Positions 4,778 through 31,749 of a stretch of 64,000 bases of DNA are shown piece by piece. Both the position numbers and the translations under genes were made by a program. The DNA comes from an uncultured Candidatus Saccharibacteria bacterium. Its GTDB lineage: Bacteria > Patescibacteriota > WWE3 > CAZQFB01. Where the stretch lies: positions 147,454-211,453 of the forward strand of contig CAZQFB010000001.1 in the NCBI GenBank assembly GCA_964592525.1, in the 5' to 3' direction. Under the pieces are notes generated by a model. That model did not search any database. It was not told the DNA's origin and worked only from the letters and a program-made list of their open reading frames with translations. Position 1 is the first letter of the stretch; each line of letters starts with the position of its first letter.

Positions 4778-5932
4778 TTAGTCTAGAGGTAACTTAGGAG
4801 GTTCTTCTGCGAGCATAGGTAAAGACTCTGGCTCCTCTAGTTTGATTTTATCAAAGGTTCTAGTTAAGACCTTGGTTCTGGTAGTATCCACCTTTTCATA
4901 TTGTTCCGTTAATGCTTTTATGCGTCCGCCGATTTTAATAAATTCTTCGCTGTATTTCTCAAATTCTTTCTCAAATTCTCTGATTAAAGCAACAATCTTA
5001 TGCACATTATTCTGAATTCTAAAGTTGGCGTATGATTGTCTGATTAATCGCAATGTAGCCGAGAAACTAAAGGGACCTACGAAAACCACTTTCTTATTCA
5101 TCGCCTCGGTCCAGACGGCGTTCATTTTTTCGTAGATAAAAGAGAAAATCATCTCGTTAGGGATAAACAAGACCACAAAATCAACGGTATTTTCTTCTGG
5201 GCAAATGTAGTTTCTTGTGGTTACCTGCTTAACCTTTTCTTTAATGTCCTGCTCAAAATTTTTCAGGTACGTTTTTTTCATAGCTACGTCTTCGGTTTCA
5301 ATGTATTTTTGCAGATTGGCATAAGGGAACTTGGCATCTACGTTGATCTTGACGCCATCGGGGAGTAAGACCGTAAAATCTGGTCGGTTAAGTGAACCGT
5401 CCTGGGCTTGGTTGTAATAATAATCAACTCCTTTCACAAACCCAGCCATTTTCAAAAGATCCTCCGCCACCTGCTCACCAAATTGACCGCGGAGTTGGTT
5501 GTTGGACAGTACCTTTTTCAGGTTATCGGTGGTGACGGTTAGCTGTTCGGAAAGGCGACGTTGGTTTTCTAGCTCGGTTTTAAGTTCGCTAAAAGAACCG
5601 ATGCGTGCTTTTTCTGCTCCCTCTAAGCGTTCTGCATTTTTTTTGAGGTCGTCTTTAATATTTTTGATCAACTCTTCAATAGCGGTTTTATTACTATTAA
5701 CATTGGTATCAATCACTTGCTTTTTGGCATCAAATTTTTGATCGGCCATCGTGATCAGCTGATCAGTGGCATTCTTTAAAGCTTGGGGAAAAATCTCATT
5801 TATCTTTTGCTCAAAGATATGCTGAACACTGTCTCCAACCGAGCCAAACAACCTATTCTTGAAGATAAAAATAAGTAGACTGGCGAGCACTGACCCAGCT
5901 AGTAGACCGAGCATAAAATAAATATTGTTCAT
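4778..5932 (-). CDS. rmuC: DNA recombination protein RmuC
   Basis: N-terminal TM helix, long coiled coil, C-terminal RmuC nuclease-like domain (PDFTVLLPDGVKINVDAKFPY...); start set to ATG at 5932 (M48 of track ORF, which begins with TTG at 6073). Confidence 0.75.
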   Translation of the reverse strand: MNNIYFMLGLLAGSVLASLLIFIFKNRLFGSVGDSVQHIFEQKINEIFPQALKNATDQLITMADQKFDAKKQVIDTNVNSNKTAIEELIKNIKDDLKKNAERLEGAEKARIGSFSELKTELENQRRLSEQLTVTTDNLKKVLSNNQLRGQFGEQVAEDLLKMAGFVKGVDYYYNQAQDGSLNRPDFTVLLPDGVKINVDAKFPYANLQKYIETEDVAMKKTYLKNFEQDIKEKVKQVTTRNYICPEENTVDFVVLFIPNEMIFSFIYEKMNAVWTEAMNKKVVFVGPFSFSATLRLIRQSYANFRIQNNVHKIVALIREFEKEFEKYSEEFIKIGGRIKALTEQYEKVDTTRTKVLTRTFDKIKLEEPESLPMLAEEPPKLPLD

Positions 5933-6668: not shown

Positions 6669-6776
6669 AGGTTGATTATAATTCAGAGGGTAAATTAGAC
6701 CAACAACTAATTTAGGAAAAATAACAAACATTTAATTTTGTAGTGTGACCAGTGTAGTTCTGTTTCCATCTGGTTA

Positions 6777-7637
6777 TTGTTAGAATTAGTGGAAATGTTA
6801 TTAGCCATATTTTGTGTTTTTACCGCCTTTTTTATTTGGAGTTCACAGGGGTTGTTTATCAACCTTCTTGCCGTGGGTTCTGTGGGGTTGGCTTGGGCAA
6901 ACAGCGCATTAGCCCTTGGGGTGGCCATAATAATTCTTAAAAATAATGGAACCTTAAGAAAGACCTTTAAGAATTCTCGGAAATTTGTATGGGCGGTGGT
7001 ATTGTTTCAGGGATTGCATAATGTGCTGTGGTATGTAGCTTTAAAAATTACCCCCATTGGTCCCGCCAATTTTATTCATAGTATGTCGCCGCTACTCATA
7101 ATACTTTTAGCAGGTGTCCTAATAAAAGAGAAATACTCAATTTACTCCTACTTTTCGGTTCTTATTGGCGCAGTAGGTCTGCTATTTATCATTGGTAGTG
7201 ATTTAAATATGAACAAGGAATTTAACGTTGTTGGCATGGCTATCACGCTATTAACCGTGGCTCTGGTTGCTGTTTTTTCACTGGCTATTAAAAAACTAAG
7301 CGCAGAGCTTAGCTATACGCAACTAATTCTGCTTATGAGTTTAGGGCAATTCATCTTTAGTAGCCCTTGGGTATTAGCTAACCTGTCGGCGATGGCTACT
7401 AATATTCTTCCCATTACTATATTTGCTTTAATCTATGCACTACCTCCATATTATTTGATACTAAAAGGATATCGAAAATTGAAAACCGCCCATGTTTCTC
7501 TTATTGGTTATTCTGAACCTGTGTTTGCCAGCATCTGGGGGGCGCTCTTTTTGTCCCAAGCGATCACCCCACTGTTAATACTTGGTGGGTTGTTGATCTT
7601 GCTCTCTAATTACCTGGCGTTTAAGCTAGACCATTGA
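6777..7637 (+). CDS. EamA-family (DMT superfamily) transporter
   Basis: 286 aa, ~10 predicted TM helices, duplicated EamA-like halves. Confidence 0.7.
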   Translation: MLELVEMLLAIFCVFTAFFIWSSQGLFINLLAVGSVGLAWANSALALGVAIIILKNNGTLRKTFKNSRKFVWAVVLFQGLHNVLWYVALKITPIGPANFIHSMSPLLIILLAGVLIKEKYSIYSYFSVLIGAVGLLFIIGSDLNMNKEFNVVGMAITLLTVALVAVFSLAIKKLSAELSYTQLILLMSLGQFIFSSPWVLANLSAMATNILPITIFALIYALPPYYLILKGYRKLKTAHVSLIGYSEPVFASIWGALFLSQAITPLLILGGLLILLSNYLAFKLDH

Positions 7638-7790
7638 AGCACTTGTTTTAAAAAGTGACGGTACCTCGAACTAAGAGATGGGTTTGTTGACTTGGGAAAG
7701 CTTTTTCCTGCTTGTGAATACTCACCGGGTTATTTAAAAGTAATTTACAATTATGATGGTTGTTTCTGTTACCGAATCTAGCTAGTATTA

Positions 7791-8255
7791 GTGGCGATGA
7801 GGAAAAAAATACTCTTGCTGGGTTTATTGTTGGTAGTGGGGTTGGGATATTACTTGTTTGTTCGCGAGAGAAAAGCTCCTGATGTGGTATTGCCAGAAGC
7901 ACAGGTTGAGGTAGTTATCTCACCGGAAGAGGAAACTAACGTGGCGGTGGTGGGTGAGTCGGAAGTGCTTGCGGACAACTTGGTGTTGGTGGAAGTTAAA
8001 GCCACTAACTTTGCTTATGATGTTACTACCATTAATGCTACCTTGGGGGATACTGTTAAACTGACTTTAATTAATGAGGAAGGGGTTCATGATTTGGTGT
8101 TGCCTGAATTTGGGGTTGCAGTGGAACCTTTGGAAGAGGGTGAGCAAGCGAGCGTGGAGTGGGTGGCTGCTAAACCAGGTGAGTTTGAATATTATTGTAG
8201 TGTGGGCAACCACCGCGAGCTGGGAATGGTGGGGACTTTAGTGGTAAGCGAGTAG
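7791..8255 (+). CDS. cupredoxin-domain (blue copper) protein, membrane-anchored
   Basis: N-terminal TM/signal; C-term EYYCSVGNHRELGMVGTLVV with H..C..H..M copper ligand spacing typical of plastocyanin-like domains. Confidence 0.55.
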   Translation: MAMRKKILLLGLLLVVGLGYYLFVRERKAPDVVLPEAQVEVVISPEEETNVAVVGESEVLADNLVLVEVKATNFAYDVTTINATLGDTVKLTLINEEGVHDLVLPEFGVAVEPLEEGEQASVEWVAAKPGEFEYYCSVGNHRELGMVGTLVVSE

Positions 8256-8947: not shown

Positions 8948-10192
8948 CTAGTGTCGGTAGGAAATGGGCAGATAACTTGCGTAGCGGTTGGGGGGAGGGG
9001 TGTTGGTAGTAGGTAGGCAGTACTGGCTGGCGGGTTGACGCAAGTAGGCTGGCACTTCTGGGTCTTCGTAAATCTCAAAGGTCAGTAGTTGGTTCCACGC
9101 CATATTCCATGGGTTATAGAAGAGCCGGCCGCGCCAGCCTACAACTTCCAAGAACACTTCAACATCCAAGTCATGCCCCCAGTAAAGAAAGGAGCCATCT
9201 GCTTGGCTAACATCTCTCATTACTTCCACGCCATCTGCTAGTCGGACAAATACAACTTGCACTCCGCAGACTCCTCCACCGTTGTACCGATGGAAAACAT
9301 ACCCGAATTTAAGTTCGGGAGTACCGGTAGGGCTGGGAGTGAGGCTGGGGCTGTGGGTAGGGGCGCTGGTGTTACTAGGGGTAGTGGTAGTGCTGGGGCT
9401 AGCCGTCCAGGTCGGGGTACTGGTCAAGCTTGGTGTTGGGGTAGCAGAGGGTGTCACTGAACTGGTCACGCTGGCAGTGCTAGTAGGGGTCAGGGTGACG
9501 GTGACACTGGGCGTAGTGGTAGCGCTGGGGCTAGCCGTCCAGGTCGGGGTACTGGTCAGACTCGGTGTTACGGTAGCAGAGGGTGTCAGTGAACTGGTCA
9601 CGCTGGCGGTGCTAGTAGGGGTCAGGGTGACGGCGACACTGGGCGTAGTGCTAGCGCTAGGGCTAGCCGTCCAGGTCGGGGTACTGGTCAGACTCGGTGT
9701 TAGGGTAGCGGAGGGTGTCAGTGAACTAGTCACACTAGGAGTGCTGGTAGATGAGGGGCTGGCGCTAGGGGTGTTGGTTGGAAGTAGGGGTTCCTCTTCA
9801 CAAAGCAGCAACACTTGATCCTGGAAGCAAGTTTCCCGCACAATGGGAAGATGAGCTCGACAATAACTGGGAGCTACGACCCATAAAGCGGCTAATTGAC
9901 CTTCTACCACCGGTGGACCGTCGAACTTAAACGCACCTCTGTCCGAAGTCCAGGTGGTGGTAACGTAATTAGCGCCACCACTCGGGGGAAAGAGGTTAAA
10001 CTCAATCCCAAACAGGGCGACTTGGGTATGACTCAAGGGAAACAAGGGACAGGTGGGGCACCAAGTGCCATACACAGTACCCGTGACACAGCCTTCTACT
10101 TGGTTGGGCGTGGCTCTGGCCGTTGGCAAACACACGAAACCCATCACCAGTAGCACTGTCACAACTGTGGTTACCTGTAACCAGCGGTTCAT
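8948..10192 (-). CDS. secreted Ser/Thr/Pro-rich repeat surface protein with C-terminal beta-sandwich-like domain
   Basis: Signal peptide from ATG 10192 (AGGAAG RBS); three 44-aa tandem repeats (SLTPSATxTPSLTSTPTWTASPS...); GC-rich; track ORF extends to 10225. Confidence 0.65.
   Translation of the reverse strand: MNRWLQVTTVVTVLLVMGFVCLPTARATPNQVEGCVTGTVYGTWCPTCPLFPLSHTQVALFGIEFNLFPPSGGANYVTTTWTSDRGAFKFDGPPVVEGQLAALWVVAPSYCRAHLPIVRETCFQDQVLLLCEEEPLLPTNTPSASPSSTSTPSVTSSLTPSATLTPSLTSTPTWTASPSASTTPSVAVTLTPTSTASVTSSLTPSATVTPSLTSTPTWTASPSATTTPSVTVTLTPTSTASVTSSVTPSATPTPSLTSTPTWTASPSTTTTPSNTSAPTHSPSLTPSPTGTPELKFGYVFHRYNGGGVCGVQVVFVRLADGVEVMRDVSQADGSFLYWGHDLDVEVFLEVVGWRGRLFYNPWNMAWNQLLTFEIYEDPEVPAYLRQPASQYCLPTTNTPPPNRYASYLPISYRH
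9395..9790. repeat. 3 x 132 bp in-frame tandem repeat inside CDS 8948..10192
   Basis: ggggctagccgtccaggtcggggtactggtca... recurs at 9395, 9527 and about 9659. Confidence 0.85.
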
Positions 10193-10320
10193 GACAACTC
10201 TTCCTTTCGGGTTGTTAAGGTTCAATATTCGTACTCCGATTATGCTTATAACCGGGCGCTGTAGTACGAAGACACGCCATTATACCACAAGACTATAAGT
10301 TATTATGGGGCTGGTATAAT

Positions 10321-24331: not shown

Positions 24332-26938
24332 ATGGTTGCTGATGCTCTCTTAACCCCAATGATGAAACAGTATCTTTCGCTTAAGAAAGAATACGATGAT
24401 TGTATCCTCTTTTTCCGGATGGGTGATTTTTACGAGATGTTTCTGGATGATGCCAAGATAGCCTCTCAAGTGCTGGATATTACCCTGACAGCTAGAGATA
24501 AAAAGAAACAAATTCCTATGGCGGGCGTGCCCTATCACGCAGTTGATTCGTATTTAGCTAAGATGGTGGGAGCTGGGTATAAAGTAGCGATTTGTGAGCA
24601 AGTGACAGAGCCTGGTTCGGGTCTGGTGGCTCGGGATGTTGTGCGCGTGGTCACTCCGGGTACTGTGCTGGACGAAAAATCTCTGGACAAAGGCAAGAAT
24701 AACTATGTCTTAAGCCTAAGCTTGAAGACAAAAAAAAATATCGGTTTTGCTTTAGCGGATGTTTCTACGGGTAAGTTTTTGGTGGCTGAATATCCTTTAA
24801 CTAATCTTGCCGGTCAGTTAGCAGATGAGCTGGTCAGATTCTCTCCCAGAGAATGCATTTTAAGTGAATCATCCTACGCTGATCCGGTTCTGCTTAGAGA
24901 ATTACGCCAGTTTCGTCATTTAAATATTTATTGTTTTCACTCTTGGGAGCAGTATGCTTCTTGTGCGCAGCAAGTGCTTAAAGAGCATTTTAAGGTCACT
25001 AGTTTACGTGGTTTGGGCATAACAGGTGCGGAAGAAATGGCAGCAGCAGCAACACTTTTGGGGTACCTGCAACAAACACAAAAAAGCCAACTGTCTCATC
25101 TCAAAACGATTTCTTCTGCCCGGAAAGAAAACCATTTAGTGATGGATCGTTCCACAATTTTAAATCTTGAGCTTTTTGCCACAATCCGGGAAGGGGACAA
25201 AAGGGGCTCGTTACTTGAGGTTTTGGATGATACTAAAACTGCCATGGGTAGTCGCTTACTTAGAGAATGGGTGTTAGCTCCGTTGATTGAGCTGGCAGAA
25301 ATTAACAAGCGCTTAGAGGCGACGCAATATTTGGTGACTAACCGTCAAGTGCGAGGTGAATTACGCGAGCTCTTAACGGGAATCCTTGATTTGGAAAGAT
25401 TGCTGGCGAGATTGTCTGCTGGTTTGGGTTCAGCTCGTGAGCTGATCACCCTTAAACGCTCTTTGCGTAATGGGCTACAGCTTAGAGAAATTCTGCCCGT
25501 GGCTAGTCAGGAAGTAGTTATTTTAGCGTCTCTGTTTCCCCAAACAGTGATCACTTCCGCGACCAAACTACTGGCTAAGTTACAGGATCAGCTTGTTGAA
25601 GAACCTCCTTTGGAGGTGCGGGTAGGGGGTATGTTTAAGCAAGGCGTTAATCCTGAATTGGATGGGTTGTTAACTCAATTAGAAGGTGGTACCTCTTTTT
25701 TAACTGCTTACGAAGAAACGGAAAGAAAAAGAACGGGTATTAATTCTCTTAAGGTTAGGTATAACCAGGTTTTTGGGTATTACCTTGAAGTGAGTAAAGC
25801 TAATCTGCCCCAGGTCCCAACAGATTATCTTCGCAAACAGACTTTAGTTAATGCCGAAAGATTTATCACGCCCCAACTAAAAGAGTACGAAGAGCAGATT
25901 TTAACGGCTAAAGAAAAAAGGAGTGCCTTAGAATACCAGCTTTGGTTAGAGCTGGTGAAGGAGGTCTTAGCGGAACTTGATAATTTGCAGTACTTGGCAC
26001 GGTCAATCGCGACCATTGATTGTTTTGCGGCTTTGGCGCAAGTAGCGGAAGTTAATAGGTATGTTCGTCCTGAACTGTTTCCATCAGGAGAGCTGATCAT
26101 TAGGCAAGGTCGCCACCCGGTAGTGGAAAAATTACTTAACGAAGAAACTTTTGTGCCCAACGATGTTCAGTTTATTCCTAAAGAACGTGACTTAATTTTG
26201 TTGACTGGTCCGAATATGGCGGGTAAATCTGTTTATATGCGCCAGGTGGCTTTGATTGTGTTGTTAGCGCAAATGGGTAGTTTTGTGCCGGCAAACGAAG
26301 CCCGCTTACCTTTGACGGATAAGTTATTTGTGCGCAGTGGTGCTAGTGATCTGATTACCGCTAATTTGTCTACTTTTATGGTGGAAATGCTGGAAACTGC
26401 TCATATTTTGCACCATGCCACCTCCCGAAGCCTGGTGCTACTTGATGAGATTGGTCGCGGTACTAGTACCTATGATGGTTTGAGTTTGGCTTGGGCAGTG
26501 GTGGAATATTTAGCGTCTCTTTCAGAAGGTTGCCCCCGCACTATTTTTGCTACTCATTACCATGAATTACAGGTTTTAGCCGAGCGCTTAAGTGGGGTGG
26601 TGAAAGCGCAAGTCTTGGTTGAGGAAGATACTGCCGGTTTACGCTTTTTGCATACTGTGGTTGCTGGAGGGGCTTCCCATAGTTACGGTTTAGCGGTGGC
26701 TTCCTTAGCTGGCATCCCTGAAGCAGTAATCCAAAGAGCATTAGCGGTCTTGGCGGTTTTGGAAGCGAAAGAACAGACTCGCCCGGGTGAGGTGGCGGTA
26801 GTGCCTTATGCCCAGCAATTAAGCCTAATTTCCGAACAACCGCATCCAGTGTTGGACTTATTAAGAGCCTTGGACCTGGACCAGCTTACACCTTTAGAGG
26901 CACTGCAGAAATTGCATGACTTGAAAAATCAGTTGTGA
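24332..26938 (+). CDS. mutS: DNA mismatch repair protein MutS
   Basis: [31 protein letters not shown]-term, Walker A GPNMAGKS, 868 aa. Confidence 0.95.
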
Positions 26939-28698
26939 GCGAGAGAGGTGCTATACTCCTGAATATGGAAGGTCAAATCAGGAAATTACCCGACGAAGTG
27001 ATCACTCAAATTGCCGCTGGAGAGGTGGTGGAAAGACCGGCTTCAATTGTCAAAGAATTGGTTGAAAACGCGCTGGATGCTGAAGCGACCGAGATTATGG
27101 TGAGCGTTGTTGAGGGTGGTATTAAAGGTATCAGAGTGCAAGATAACGGGGTGGGGATGAATGACCTGGATTTACAAAGGTGTGTTTTAGCTCATACGAC
27201 CAGTAAGATCAACGTTTTTGAGGATTTGGTTAACCTTAATTCTTTTGGTTTTAGAGGGGAAGCTTTGGCGGCGATTGCGGCGGTGAGTAAATTTACTATT
27301 GCTAGTCGGCAAAACCATAAGCCGATGGGATATGCCTTGGAAGTTGTTTATGGCACTTGCGGTAAAATCCAGTCCATGGGAATGTCCTGCGGTACTTTGG
27401 TTACGGTGGAAAATCTATTTAGCACCATTCCCGCGCGACAAAAATTTTTAAAATCAGCCGTGACCGAATTTAACCATATTCTTGAAGTAGTAGCCTCAAT
27501 GGCGATTTTATTTCCGGAAAAAAGTTTCACCTTAAAACATAATGGCAAGGTAGCTTTATCTTACCCTAAAAGTGCCCAGCTGTCGGAAAGATTAGCCTTA
27601 GTGCTTGGGCAAAACACGGCGGAGAAAATGATTACGGTGGGCAGCGAATCGCCGTATTTAACCGTGACTGGGGTAGTCTCTCGACCAGAGCTGTCTACCA
27701 GTAGAGCCGATAAACAATTTTTATACGTTAATGGGCGTAGAATCACCGATCATTACTTGAGTGCTGCCATTAAAAGAGCTTACGGTACTCTGTTAATGCC
27801 ACGTTCTTACCCGTTGTATGCTCTATTTATTAACCTGCCTTCGGAAATGGTAGATATTAACGTTCATCCGCGAAAAAGTGAGGTGGCTTTTGTTAACAAA
27901 GGCGCCGTATTTCAGTTTTTAAAACAAGCGGTAGCGAAGGGTTTAGTGCAGGTAGATTTAACTTACGGTCGGTACCCAAGCGAGCCAGTGGCTAGTAATT
28001 TTGTTAGGCAAACGGAGGTCTTCGCTTTGCGGAGGACACCAACTATTTCCCACCCCTCTTTAGCGGCGGTGGCTGAAGCGGTCAAATGGCAACAACCCCT
28101 AATATCTTCTGTGGTTAAGCAAACGATTGCGGAAGAAGTCTGGCAGCTTGAGTTATGTTATTTGGTGACGTTGTCGTCGCAAGGTTTGTTGATTGTTGAT
28201 CAGCATGCTGCGCATGAGCGAGTGTTATACGAAAAGTTGTGGCGTGAGTTTAACGAGCAAAAAAAGCAGGGTCGCTCACAAAAACTTTTAGTACCACTTG
28301 AATTGAAGTTGACGGTACCTCAAGAAGAAGCTTTAACAGAACAGCTAACCATTTTGGCAAAAATTGGGTTTCTCTTTTCCGAAACGAAACCTCTGCACGT
28401 AGTTGGTGTACCAGTGTTTTTGGTCGGACGTGATATTTATGCCATTATTCACGAAGTCCTGGACGATATCTTAAACGATTCGCCAGCCGAGATTGATAAC
28501 CAGAGTTTGAGGATACTAACTTATCTTTCTTGTCGGGGCGCGGTTAAGAAAGGGGATTACCTTTCGCCAGAGGAGAGGCAAGCGCTGTTGCGTGAGTTGT
28601 GGCAGTGTGAGAGTGCCTATACCTGTCCTCACGGTAGACCAGTGAGCATTGATCTAGCAATAAAAGATCTTGAAAAGATGTTCAAGAGAGTTATTTGA
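26935..28698 (+). CDS. mutL: DNA mismatch repair protein MutL
   Basis: [39 protein letters not shown] ATPase N-term; GTG start overlapping mutS stop (alternative ATG at 26965). Confidence 0.9.
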
Positions 28699-28775
28699 CT
28701 TAATTACCCCATAGTATTATACTCTGGTGGGCAAATGAAAACATCTGAGATTGATGGTGGTGCTCTGTTTCTAAG

Positions 28776-29678
28776 GTGTTAGGAGCAGTGTGTCGTCCTC
28801 AATTGATAGTTGAGGCCATCGCCTTGAAGTCGGTGGAATTCTACGACGCACTTGAAAAGGAGCAGAAGGTGACAAAGTCAGTGGTAGTAACGGAGGATCT
28901 AAGGAGAGCCTTTGCTCAGCTAAACGAGGTGCAAAAGAGGCTTCTCAATGGAGCGCTAAGACCACTTGATGTCCGAGATCCCCTGCAAGCAATCATCGAG
29001 GGTAGGATGATTGTGCTCGATCGCTTTGCTCTCTTTAGTGAGCTTCTGCTGAGCCCGGCTGATCAGCTGGAGCGTCTCCGAGCATATGACGAGAAATACT
29101 GGGGAGGTGCAATCTGCGAGGAGCTAAAGGGTTTTCAGTTACCCGATGTAGGTCTTCACCCGCAAAGGGTGAAGGATTTGCGGGTTCTTCATGTGGAATT
29201 TGGCTCTCCGGGAGAGACCCTGGAGAGGTGGTGGCAGGTGATCTCAGCTACCCAGCCCGGGTCTTGGCGATCGGGAGATCTCCAGAGTGATTCTGCTCAT
29301 CTGGGTCTCCACAGCCAGGCACGCCACTACCCTCCAGGAATCCATGTGGTTCGCCTAGACCTGGCGGCCCATTGGGAGCCGGAAGCGGGGAGAACCCTGG
29401 TGGATGTATACGCTAGGGTTAGGGAAGCTGGGGAGAAGCTTGCCCATGGTGAGATTCTCTCGGCCTGTGGGCTCCATCCTGATCTGGTAAGGGAGATGGA
29501 TGGAGAGAATCTGCCTTTCGTGGATCTGGCAGGGTATCAGGTATTAATGCCTGGTTTACCGACCTGTCGGGCTGTTCCGTGTCTTTACTGGGATAGCCTC
29601 AGAGGCAAGGTCGCCCTCGACGTCGACTCCATTGACTATTTCCTTCCCTCTTGGGCGGCTCCGGTGCTCAGGGAGTAA
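28776..29678 (+). CDS. DGR target (variable) protein; no recognised domain, GC-rich, VR encodes last ~43 aa
   Basis: 300 aa, GTG start; roughly 57% GC; 3' 127 nt form the VR; no obvious signal peptide or TM. Confidence 0.7.
   Translation: MLGAVCRPQLIVEAIALKSVEFYDALEKEQKVTKSVVVTEDLRRAFAQLNEVQKRLLNGALRPLDVRDPLQAIIEGRMIVLDRFALFSELLLSPADQLERLRAYDEKYWGGAICEELKGFQLPDVGLHPQRVKDLRVLHVEFGSPGETLERWWQVISATQPGSWRSGDLQSDSAHLGLHSQARHYPPGIHVVRLDLAAHWEPEAGRTLVDVYARVREAGEKLAHGEILSACGLHPDLVREMDGENLPFVDLAGYQVLMPGLPTCRAVPCLYWDSLRGKVALDVDSIDYFLPSWAAPVLRE
29548..29674 (+). repeat. DGR variable repeat (VR)
   Basis: 127 nt aligned to 30140-30266 with 18 mismatches, every one at a position that is A in the downstream copy; 3' 27 nt (ttgggcggctccggtgctcaggga) identical and GC-rich (IMH-like). 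Confidence 0.85.
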
Positions 29679-30139
29679 GTACTCCTACTTAGGGTCTTAG
29701 GGCTTTTGGTGATAAGTCCTTGGACCTTTGTTTGAGAGAAAGAGAAGGGGTGTCTTCTGAAATCTGCTTGCAGATTATGGAGGCACCCCTCTTTGTTTTA
29801 TCAATAGGCGAAATTATATATTTTGTTTCCCCTCGGCAGGTAATAAAATCTACGCTCTACGGTACATCGAGGATATGGGTGGTTTGTATAAATCATATTG
29901 AGATATAATTCCCTTCGGATGGTAGGTTAATGAACCCTGATTTAAGGATTGGGGAACACCGAGATCTCTCTTTTCGCAACAACTAGCGGAATCAAATTTA
30001 AGACATTAATTTTGAGTGTCTAGAGCGAATAACGAGCACTCCTTGCTGTCTACTGGGGATGGTCAATAGGTCCCGAATGAGATTCAGGAGTTGGATGCGT
30101 CTGGCTCCAGTGGTGTAGAAGGTAGATAGCATATACCGG

Positions 30140-30266
30140 TGCCTGGTTTACCGACCTGTCGGGCTGTTCCGTATCTTAACTGGAATAGAATCAAAAGCAA
30201 GGTCAACCTCAACGTCAACTCAATTGACAATTTCAATCACAATTGGGCGGCTCCGGTGCTCAGGGA
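30140..30266 (+). repeat. DGR template repeat (TR)
   Basis: Same orientation as VR; in the target reading frame the variable sites fall on first/second positions of AAC/AAT codons (N->Y,D,A,D,D,Y,L,S etc.). Confidence 0.85.
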
Positions 30267-30387: not shown

Positions 30388-30756
30388 TTAGCTGACCGAA
30401 CGCAACCATCCGCCTAACATCTTACCAATTGTAATAAGTTGTGCTTCCAGTTCTAGGTAATGCTTGTTTGATAAACACTGACAATCCTTACCCATGCGGA
30501 TGAGAAGTCGCAGGAGATCGAGTTCACTTGAGGCTTGTTGCAGATAAGTTTTTTTTAGCTTGCCATCTGAGGAGTTAGCTGTTCTTATTGTAAGCCTTAA
30601 TATTTCTAAAGTTTGGTTTTGGGCGGTTGCTCCCAGGGTATATCTTTGATGTTTGGGAAATTTAACTAACTGCACATGGAGATGTTTGTACAATTCATAA
30701 AGATTATGAACGATTGGTATATCGTGTGGTTTCGTAGGGTTAGATTTTGTAATCAT
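30388..30756 (-). CDS. avd: DGR accessory variability determinant (Avd)-like four-helix-bundle protein
   Basis: 122 aa; FPKHQRYTLGATAQNQ...LIRMGKDCQCLSNKHYLELEAQLITIGKMLGGWLRS resembles the four-helix-bundle/Avd family (BPP-1 Avd ...VLIAEVGRILGSWIARV). Confidence 0.75.
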   Translation of the reverse strand: MITKSNPTKPHDIPIVHNLYELYKHLHVQLVKFPKHQRYTLGATAQNQTLEILRLTIRTANSSDGKLKKTYLQQASSELDLLRLLIRMGKDCQCLSNKHYLELEAQLITIGKMLGGWLRSVS

Positions 30757-30762
30757 TAGGTG

Positions 30763-31749
30763 ATGAGTGTAGCAACTTTTTACAAAATATGCTCTCCTAA
30801 GTGGTTGTTTGAATCATGGGATACATTTAGAAAGGGAAAGAGGAAAAGACTTGAGGTGATGCTCTACGAGCGGAATTTGGAAAGGAACATCTTTTGCTTG
30901 AGTGGAAATCTTTTGTCTAAGAAATATAAGCATGGTGTCTACGAGCAATTTAAGGTCACTGATCCTAAATTGCGGAGAATAAGTAAAGCATGCGTACAGG
31001 ATCGTTTGGTTCATCAAGCTGTGGTTTCTGGTATTGAGTCCTCCTTCGAGAAGAGGTTTATTTATGACAGCTACTCCTGCAGGAGTGGCAAAGGCACTCA
31101 TGCGGCTGTTGCTAGGTTGCGAAGTTTTCTGGGGAAAGAAAGTCGGAATAATACTCGGACAACCTATGTTCTTAAATGTGACGTTAAAAGATTTTTCGAT
31201 TGCTTGGATCATGGTATTTTGATGGCTCTAATTAATAGGGTGGTTAAAGATAGTGATACCCTATGGCTGATAGAGGAAATTGTAGATAGTTTTTCTATCT
31301 TTCCTGGTAAAGGTGTTCCTCTTGGTAATCTCACAAGCCAGTTATTTGCCAATATTTATTTACATGAGCTGGATCGGTTCATAAAAAATGATTTGGGGAT
31401 TAAGTATTACGTTCGCTACTGTGACGATTTTGTAATTGTTGACAGTGATTCCAGGTATCTTCAGGGGTTGATCCCTATTCTAGAGGGTTTCTTAAGAAAT
31501 TATCTCAATCTCTGTCTGCATCCTAATAAGATTACCTTACGTACCTGGAATAGCGGGATGGATTTTCTGGGGTATATCCTAAAGCCTGATTGTACATTAC
31601 TCAGGACCAAGACAAAGAATCGTGCATTAAGACGGGTGAATAGCAATAATCTGCCTTCATATCTTGGTATTTGTTCTCACTGTGACTCGTTTGAGCTTCA
31701 ACAGATTCTCAAGTGTAAAGCTGGTAGTCTAGCACGAGAGGGGTCTTAG
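30763..31749 (+). CDS. DGR-type reverse transcriptase
   Basis: RT motifs 1-7 present: PKLRRISKACVQDRLVHQA, SYSCRSGKGTHAAV, YVLKCDVKRFFDCLDH, GVPLGNLTSQLFANIYLHELD (SQ variant of motif 4 typical of DGR RTs), YVRYCDDFVIV, LCLHPNKI, FLGY; no maturase/endonuclease domain. Confidence 0.85.
   Translation: MSVATFYKICSPKWLFESWDTFRKGKRKRLEVMLYERNLERNIFCLSGNLLSKKYKHGVYEQFKVTDPKLRRISKACVQDRLVHQAVVSGIESSFEKRFIYDSYSCRSGKGTHAAVARLRSFLGKESRNNTRTTYVLKCDVKRFFDCLDHGILMALINRVVKDSDTLWLIEEIVDSFSIFPGKGVPLGNLTSQLFANIYLHELDRFIKNDLGIKYYVRYCDDFVIVDSDSRYLQGLIPILEGFLRNYLNLCLHPNKITLRTWNSGMDFLGYILKPDCTLLRTKTKNRALRRVNSNNLPSYLGICSHCDSFELQQILKCKAGSLAREGS

Follow-up and report, generated by a model that had tools for sequence, protein, structure and literature searches.

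The 64-kb window, by which we mean the whole stretch of DNA that was analyzed, contains a complete DGR, and the target gene, VR, TR, avd and reverse transcriptase (RT) were all found in it. The features of the locus, including the two domains predicted for the target protein, are the following:

28695-28723, + strand: promoter-like site (TTGACT-17-TATACT) in the gap between mutL and the target; a consensus match only, 10/12
28776-29678, + strand: ORF of the DGR target (variable protein), 300 aa counted from the first GTG
28869-29135, + strand: N-terminal all-helical domain of the target (ORF residues ~32-120), from the secondary structure of the model; matches no known family
29136-29675, + strand: C-terminal domain of the target (residues 121-300), predicted to adopt a divergent C-type-lectin fold
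29548-29674, + strand: VR, the last 42 codons of the target
29672-29685, + strand: candidate hairpin over the target stop codon, 3' of the GC-rich end of VR; weak (z -0.53)
29779-29792, + strand: terminator-like hairpin with a T-run behind it, in the spacer that separates target and TR
30140-30266, + strand: TR, with 34 adenines and 8 AAY codons
30276-30308, + strand: strong 14-bp hairpin directly 3' of TR (z -3.7; 0/200 shuffles fold as well)
30388-30756, - strand: avd (accessory variability determinant); Pfam bAvd, 2e-18; NCBIfam DivGenRetAVD, 2.8e-22
30760-31749, + strand: DGR reverse transcriptase; RVT_1, 1.4e-21

VR and TR measure 127 nt each and are 86% identical, and a spacer of 460 nt separates the target from TR. 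All 18 mismatches between the two repeats fall at TR adenines (A->G 7, A->C 7, A->T 4) and none at any other base; with 34 adenines in the TR core, we calculate the chance of such a distribution as ~(34/127)^18, or roughly 5e-11. Over its 3' ~30 nt, VR is rich in GC and does not differ from TR until the last few bases. A preliminary description of this DNA had identified the ORF at 28776-29678 as the DGR target and quoted its VR-encoded C-terminal peptide; the ORF exists and ends in exactly that peptide, and the adenine-specific mismatches confirm its assignment. Its estimate of about 15 variable codons was likewise accurate, as 15 of the 21 adenine-containing codons of TR differ in VR, giving 14 amino-acid changes. 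With all 21 codons open to rewriting, 8 of them AAY, the repertoire of the target amounts to ~3e17 protein variants.

The Avd protein passes the Pfam bAvd cutoff (67 bits against a cutoff of 40) and, at 79 bits, falls just below the 80-bit cutoff of NCBIfam DivGenRetAVD. The reverse transcriptase carries YCDD at residue 220 and, at residues 188-194, LGNLTSQ, an instance of the DGR-typical [I/L]GxxxSQ motif, and every match of this protein to the NCBIfam models of other RT classes was far below cutoff. The DGR is complete and canonical, of the CPR/Saccharibacteria type, and ORF 28776-29678 encodes its variable protein. Following established DGR biology, the RT-Avd complex would copy TR RNA into cDNA, misincorporating opposite adenines, and this cDNA would then take the place of VR at the 3' end of the target gene. 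The hairpin directly downstream of TR may serve as a terminator and/or form part of a structured spacer RNA. The hairpin over the stop codon folds no better than shuffled sequence, and we list it as a candidate only for a target-recognition element.

The neighbors of the DGR are housekeeping genes, with htrA, mutS and mutL upstream and genes for a CAP-domain membrane protein and glycosyltransferases downstream. No phage structural genes were found among these neighbors in the window. The mutS and mutL genes (24332-28698, + strand) lie directly upstream of the target on the same strand, with mutL ending 78 nt before the ORF. We note this adjacency since mismatch repair could interact with cDNA integration; it is probably a coincidence, because other loci of the family have different neighbors.

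The true start of the target gene is probably the GTG at 28869, which would give a protein of 269 aa, since an AAGGAG sequence (28857-28862) lies 6 nt upstream and the N-termini of homologues, which begin MTVxV[DE]xD[ML]xRAF, agree with this point. Residues 1-40 of the 300-aa ORF are modeled with low confidence, and the NCBI-derived product of this gene (P0001) starts at 28788. Searches with the target protein against Pfam, NCBIfam, PHROG, PADLOC and PDB sequences returned no match. At E <= 1, the only Pfam match was a spurious one to VMAP-M15 (0.11), and neither FGE-sulfatase (PF03781) nor DUF1566 (PF07603) was matched. The preliminary description had reported no recognizable signature of either type, and this holds for the family as a whole, with 0/98 relatives matching any Pfam model at E <= 0.01. 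A profile built from these 98 sequences also found nothing among PDB sequences.

AlphaFold2 prediction of the full protein from a 28-sequence alignment (pLDDT 88.2, pTM 0.74) yielded a model that is helical at the N-terminus (residues 8-119) and alpha/beta in its C-terminal domain, and prediction of the 121-300 domain alone reached a pLDDT of 91.8 and a pTM of 0.87. Nothing clearly non-CLec was present among the 60 matches listed for the domain model (TvpA 4.9, Mtd 4.6), and a Foldseek search against the PDB gave no significant E-value, its top matches being likewise C-type lectins. The target is hence modeled as a two-domain protein, with a helical N-terminal domain of ~90 residues and a C-terminal domain of ~175 residues that is predicted to be a sequence-divergent C-type-lectin fold, not a new scaffold.

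In the model, VR encodes the last two long beta-strands (residues 266-273 and 278-285), the loop behind them and an invariant closing segment, WAAPV. The TR-adenine codons fall at residues 269, 271, 273-278, 280, 282, 284-288 and 290-292, and they interleave with the conserved residues P268, L270, W272, V279, L281 and V283 in an i/i+2 pattern along the C-terminal beta-hairpin. Across 98 homologues, mean entropy is 3.39 bits in the adenine-codon columns, compared to 2.38 bits in the non-adenine columns of VR. Because variable and conserved residues alternate along the strands, we infer that the diversified surface that binds the ligand is one face of the hairpin, as is the case in Mtd and TvpA.

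The preliminary description had offered a novel variable-protein scaffold as one of its explanations, and had named a predicted standard CLec fold with the variable residues in the binding site as the outcome that would speak against it. The first part of that outcome is what the models predict, and the second is suggested by strand periodicity. A new non-lectin scaffold for DGR variation, although compatible with the lack of Pfam, NCBIfam and PDB sequence similarity in the target and its 98 relatives and with the non-significant Foldseek E-values, is highly improbable in view of the predicted CLec fold and the placement of the variable codons in its C-terminal hairpin. The models make the target a new sequence-orphan member of the CLec-fold class of variable proteins.

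A word-indexed search for homologues recovered 5 and then 28 relatives and was followed by an exhaustive HMMER profile search, in which the family comprised at least 396 clusters (50% identity) at E <= 1e-3 and 213 at E <= 1e-10. All of the 150 matches listed are 120-393 aa long, most of them 200-310 aa. The family has no Pfam model and no name, and no relatives were found in IMG/VR viral contigs. Its GTDB-representative loci belong to Candidatus Saccharibacteria MAGs and to one unclassified bacterium. Wherever the flanking sequence suffices (L001, L003, L006, L011, L019 and L022), in Saccharibacteria MAGs and metagenome contigs alike, the layout is the one seen in the window, with a target (+) bearing a C-terminal VR, TR (+), avd (-) and RT (+), and the RTs of these cassettes are 50-55% identical to that of the window. 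The closest cassettes to the window DGR are those of Saccharibacteria MAGs.

Several loci depart from, or add to, this arrangement. The L001 cassette contains two tandem targets with one TR common to both; the same 55-nt promoter-like repeat (TTGACA ... TACAAT type) precedes each of them (7786-7840 and 8953-9007), and each target thus seems to have its own promoter. Family members at L008, L017 and L021 have no DGR nearby. The L017 gene (8001-8924), which is GC-rich (59% vs 46%), lies between pgk and tpi on a 690-kb, CPR-sized contig; no TR, avd or RT was found within 8 kb, and its product is either the remote target of a DGR elsewhere in its genome or an orphan. In L011, from the same species as L002, the repeat at the TR position beside avd is 100% identical to VR over 129 nt (6771-6899 and 8006-8134) and is not AAY-rich. 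It looks as if TR had been overwritten by VR sequence in this element, which would freeze most of its diversifying capacity.

The L003 cassette, of ~4.7 kb (target, TR, avd, RT, a PLDc_2 protein and small ORFs), lies between 257-nt direct repeats (425-681 and 5134-5389) that are 97.7% identical and begin at the 3' end of a tRNA-Ala gene behind a tRNA-Ile gene, which suggests an integrated mobile unit. L019 had been considered as a 4.7-kb circular DGR element, and this was discarded on finding that its two ends overlap by the 257-nt direct repeat seen on either side of this cassette in L003. Insertion of the L003/L019 cassette into a 23S rRNA gene was also rejected, as Rfam detects no rRNA there.

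A paralogue of the window target, P0002, lies outside the window on the same 344,256-bp NCBI contig as P0001. Its last ~225 residues, including the whole VR, are 100% identical to those of the window target, and its first ~75 are unrelated, having been replaced. Such a pattern speaks for a duplication or a gene conversion of recent date, the junction lying close to residue 77. The two VRs have therefore not diversified independently since that event, and their identity argues against very recent independent diversification.

Among known systems, the window DGR shows no essential difference from the CPR (Patescibacteria) clade 2 DGRs (Roux et al. 2021, PMC8144416). Like it, these are cellular, with avd, RT and TR beside a small target, and their targets, like that of the window, have a C-terminal VR and lack TM segments, signal peptides and recognizable N-terminal domains. 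The same study predicted that VR domains still uncharacterized would turn out to be novel variants of CLec. AvpA, from a nanoarchaeal DGR, is a variable protein whose CLec fold cannot be recognized from sequence and is related to the FGE subclass only at a distance (Handa et al. 2016, PMC5006420). AvpA thus resembles the window target as a sequence-unrecognizable CLec fold from 'microbial dark matter'; it is, however, a single globular domain, whereas the window target adds a helical domain and, in contrast with AvpA, best matches FGE-type folds and not animal CTLDs.

TvpA of Treponema denticola (PDB 2Y3C) shares 5% sequence identity with the window target. Mtd of Bordetella phage BPP-1 (PDB 1YU0) forms the trimeric tip of a phage tail fiber; the window target, in contrast, is chromosomal and without phage context, and has no relatives in PHROG or viral contigs. 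The C-terminal domain of Bd2740, a fiber tip of Bdellovibrio bacteriovorus (PDB 8OKS), is 7-8% identical to the target, is not diversified by a DGR and belongs to a long secreted fiber. TvpA, for its part, is a lipoprotein that matches the FGE-sulfatase family. The window target, unlike TvpA, lacks both a Pfam match and an export signal, and it has a helical domain added at the N-terminus.

The absence of an export signal was assessed with a crude hydropathy test. The maximum Kyte-Doolittle mean over 19 residues is 1.19 in the target protein, and by this test no signal peptide, lipobox or TM helix is present in it, in agreement with what had been described before. Stop codons close the frame upstream of the ORF, so that an in-frame extension cannot add a signal peptide; such an extension, which the preliminary description had named as evidence that would count against its view, is thereby discarded. 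When applied to the 98 relatives, the same test found a single protein (1/98) above a 19-residue mean of 1.6, with the segment internal, and no N-terminal hydrophobic runs of the signal-peptide type.

With signal peptides and TM helices absent from the whole family by this test, the target would either act in the cytoplasm or be carried to the cell surface by a partner to which its helical domain binds; we consider the two about equally likely. The suggestion that it may be intracellular is not new. CPR clade 2 targets typically lack TM segments or other domains, and whether they are genuine non-membrane-bound targets 'remains to be established' (Roux et al. 2021, PMC8144416). An adhesin that attaches to a host bacterium, present at the surface or secreted, and exported without a classical signal, for instance by docking of the helical N-terminal domain to a pilus, S-layer or secreted partner, has in our estimate somewhat less than an even chance of being correct. 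Against it stand the hydropathy results for all 98 members, the absence of any export, pilus or partner gene conserved beside the family loci, and the lack of relatives in viral contigs or PHROGs.

The preliminary description had also singled out the target as a GC outlier, at ~57%, and in this it was right. The ORF has a GC content of 54.8%, rising to 56.2% over residues 77-257 and up to 60.7% in 300-nt windows, compared to 39.7% for RT, 39.0% for avd, 44.9% for mutS, 44.6% for mutL and 40.9% for the whole window, and its GC3 is 0.56 vs ~0.42. Among 800-nt stretches of the window, the target ranks second in GC content (z ~3). The only stretch that is more GC-rich (57.8% over 800 nt) lies at 8948-10225 on the - strand and encodes a protein of 425 aa in which a hydrophobic N-terminal segment is combined with long tandem repeats rich in Ser, Thr and Pro; its GC richness appears to be due to amino-acid composition.

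This excess is shared by most of the family. Of 20 family genes with DNA available, 18 exceed their flanks by 7-28 GC points, with z values of 3-11 relative to windows of the same size on the same contig, and for the avd and RT genes of these cassettes GC3 is 0.36-0.48 and GC content stays at that of the genome. The window gene shows the mildest excess of the main clade, as can be seen from other representatives:

L012: target GC3 0.92, flank GC 41%
L006: target GC3 0.83, flank GC 36.5%
L001a / L001b: target GC3 0.82 / 0.84, flank GC 46%
L010: target GC3 0.85, flank GC 48%
L011: target GC3 0.76, flank GC 40%
L003: target GC3 0.71, flank GC 41%

This does not hold for L008, whose GC equals that of its genome and which has no DGR nearby, and it holds only weakly for the L005/L014/L015 subclade (+6 to +12 points). 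In all 20 genes, the 3' half is GC-richer than the 5' half and A3 is below T3.

Comparison of related cassettes indicates that the excess is long-lived. L001 and L006 diverge by 0.20 at 4-fold sites in the target and in RT alike, and both genes were therefore inherited together, with GC3 values of 0.82-0.83 in the targets and 0.46-0.48 in the RTs. In L003 and L022, whose RTs are 69% identical at the amino-acid level, synonymous sites are saturated and target GC3 is still 0.68-0.71, and in L012 and L020, 59% of 4-fold sites differ, mostly by G<->C exchange (18/32 differences). From these sequence comparisons, high target GC appears to be a trait of the whole gene family and not the mark of a recent capture in the window genome. 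Because the excess is family-wide and persists through saturating synonymous divergence, and because the target is co-inherited with RT, a single recent capture in that genome is unlikely.

Taken together, we favor with a probability of about 0.8 an explanation in which the locus is a CPR-type DGR, its target carries a divergent CLec-fold domain and the GC excess is a trait of the target family. The trait would be upheld either by repeated exchange with bacteria of high GC or by some active force holding GC3 high, and we judge neither to be more probable than the other.

Two family members bear directly on exchange. The L018 member (204-896, P0021), which has an internal deletion, lies beside GAF-SpoIIE, STAS and anti-sigma kinase genes, and the L023/L024 member (556-1344 in L023, 1009-1797 in L024) lies between genes for a LivK-like binding protein and an ABC ATPase. 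Both occur in contigs of 65-67% GC and match the GC of their own flanks; neither has a DGR nearby, and their neighboring genes are atypical of CPR. Their products are 45% (L018) and 44% (L023/L024) identical to the window target over the conserved domain and are nested inside the Saccharibacterial clade, where L018 has 63% identity to L001a and L006. Genes thus seem to have passed between Saccharibacteria and bacteria of high GC, in one direction or the other.

The preliminary description had proposed a horizontally captured target. In a broader form, the gene or family would have been captured from high-GC bacteria, plausibly actinobacterial hosts, and its foreign composition, not yet ameliorated, would be renewed by recurrent transfer. 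The contrast between main-clade GC3 (0.68-0.92) and flanking GC (36-53%) and the two members in high-GC contigs are in keeping with this, as are the graded GC3 values, which resemble stages of amelioration (0.56 in the window, 0.46-0.49 in the L005 group and 0.42, equal to its genome, in L008). GC content, however, cannot tell the direction of transfer for the high-GC copies, and RT and avd are at genome GC in the same 3-kb cassettes, within which the target has co-diverged with RT. Moreover, GC3 stays at ~0.7-0.9 in the synonymously saturated pairs (L003/L022 and L012/L020), and swapping the target alone with VR/TR homology kept would need repeated, precise recombination. Capture in this recurrent form is accordingly a reading that we hold to be doubtful; of the original claim, contact with high-GC bacteria finds some support in the members on high-GC contigs, and an acquisition peculiar to this genome is made unlikely by the family-wide distribution of the trait.

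The other explanation, to which we give no better odds than to recurrent capture, is that some active force at the locus holds the GC content of the target high against an AT-rich genome. This could be GC-biased gene conversion or repair, at a locus prone to recombination through paralogue conversion or cDNA integration, or else selection on codon usage or mRNA. Such a force would account for a GC3 excess that outlasts saturating synonymous divergence while the co-inherited RT remains AT-rich, for the preponderance of G<->C changes between L012 and L020, and for the GC-richer 3' halves and the low A3 relative to T3 of all 20 genes. Signs of recombination or conversion are present in P0002, with its swapped N-terminus, and in the TR of L011, and L008, the sole DGR-distant member in a low-GC genome at genome GC, also fits. 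No DGR step, however, is known to act on sequence upstream of VR, and the effects of GC-biased gene conversion reported in bacteria are far smaller than +40 GC3 points. The L005/L014/L015 genes, furthermore, are linked to a TR and yet show only their small excess, and the L017 gene is GC-rich with no DGR within 8 kb. The terminator-like site between target and TR also speaks against long read-through templates.

Two specific DGR-based mechanisms were considered and rejected. Whole-gene depletion of adenine by the RT is at odds with the depletion of T3 as well, and with the terminator-like site that separates the target from TR; the third-position pattern of the target genes resembles ordinary high-GC codon usage. 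A read-through target-TR transcript as template was dismissed on account of the same terminator-like site.

Whatever its origin, the family-wide GC anomaly is real, and of all the features of the locus it alone would come as a surprise to a specialist. Across many independent Saccharibacteria contigs that are AT-rich, strong GC richness is limited to the target gene, and there are close homologues in high-GC bacteria, which was unexpected. Neither this excess nor the fold assignment of the target family was found in the literature searched. Tentatively, and against the odds as we judge them, the long-lived, gene-confined GC3 excess, with values of up to 0.92 in genomes of ~40% GC, could be actively maintained rather than leftover foreign composition. 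Possible routes of maintenance are GC-biased conversion or repair at the DGR target, and continual exchange or codon matching with high-GC hosts of actinobacterial type.

The family described here adds one more sequence-orphan group of targets, with at least 396 clusters and no Pfam model, to those built on the C-type-lectin fold, and it supports the view that DGR variation is displayed nearly always on this scaffold. Being well populated and free of signal peptides, it also offers a test ground for non-membrane-bound targets in CPR bacteria. If the GC excess reflects gene flow between host and epibiont, or biased conversion, it would bear on how reduced genomes gain and keep host-interaction genes, and if active maintenance were borne out, DGR targets would by either of its routes become a compositional marker for a process not yet described in CPR bacteria.
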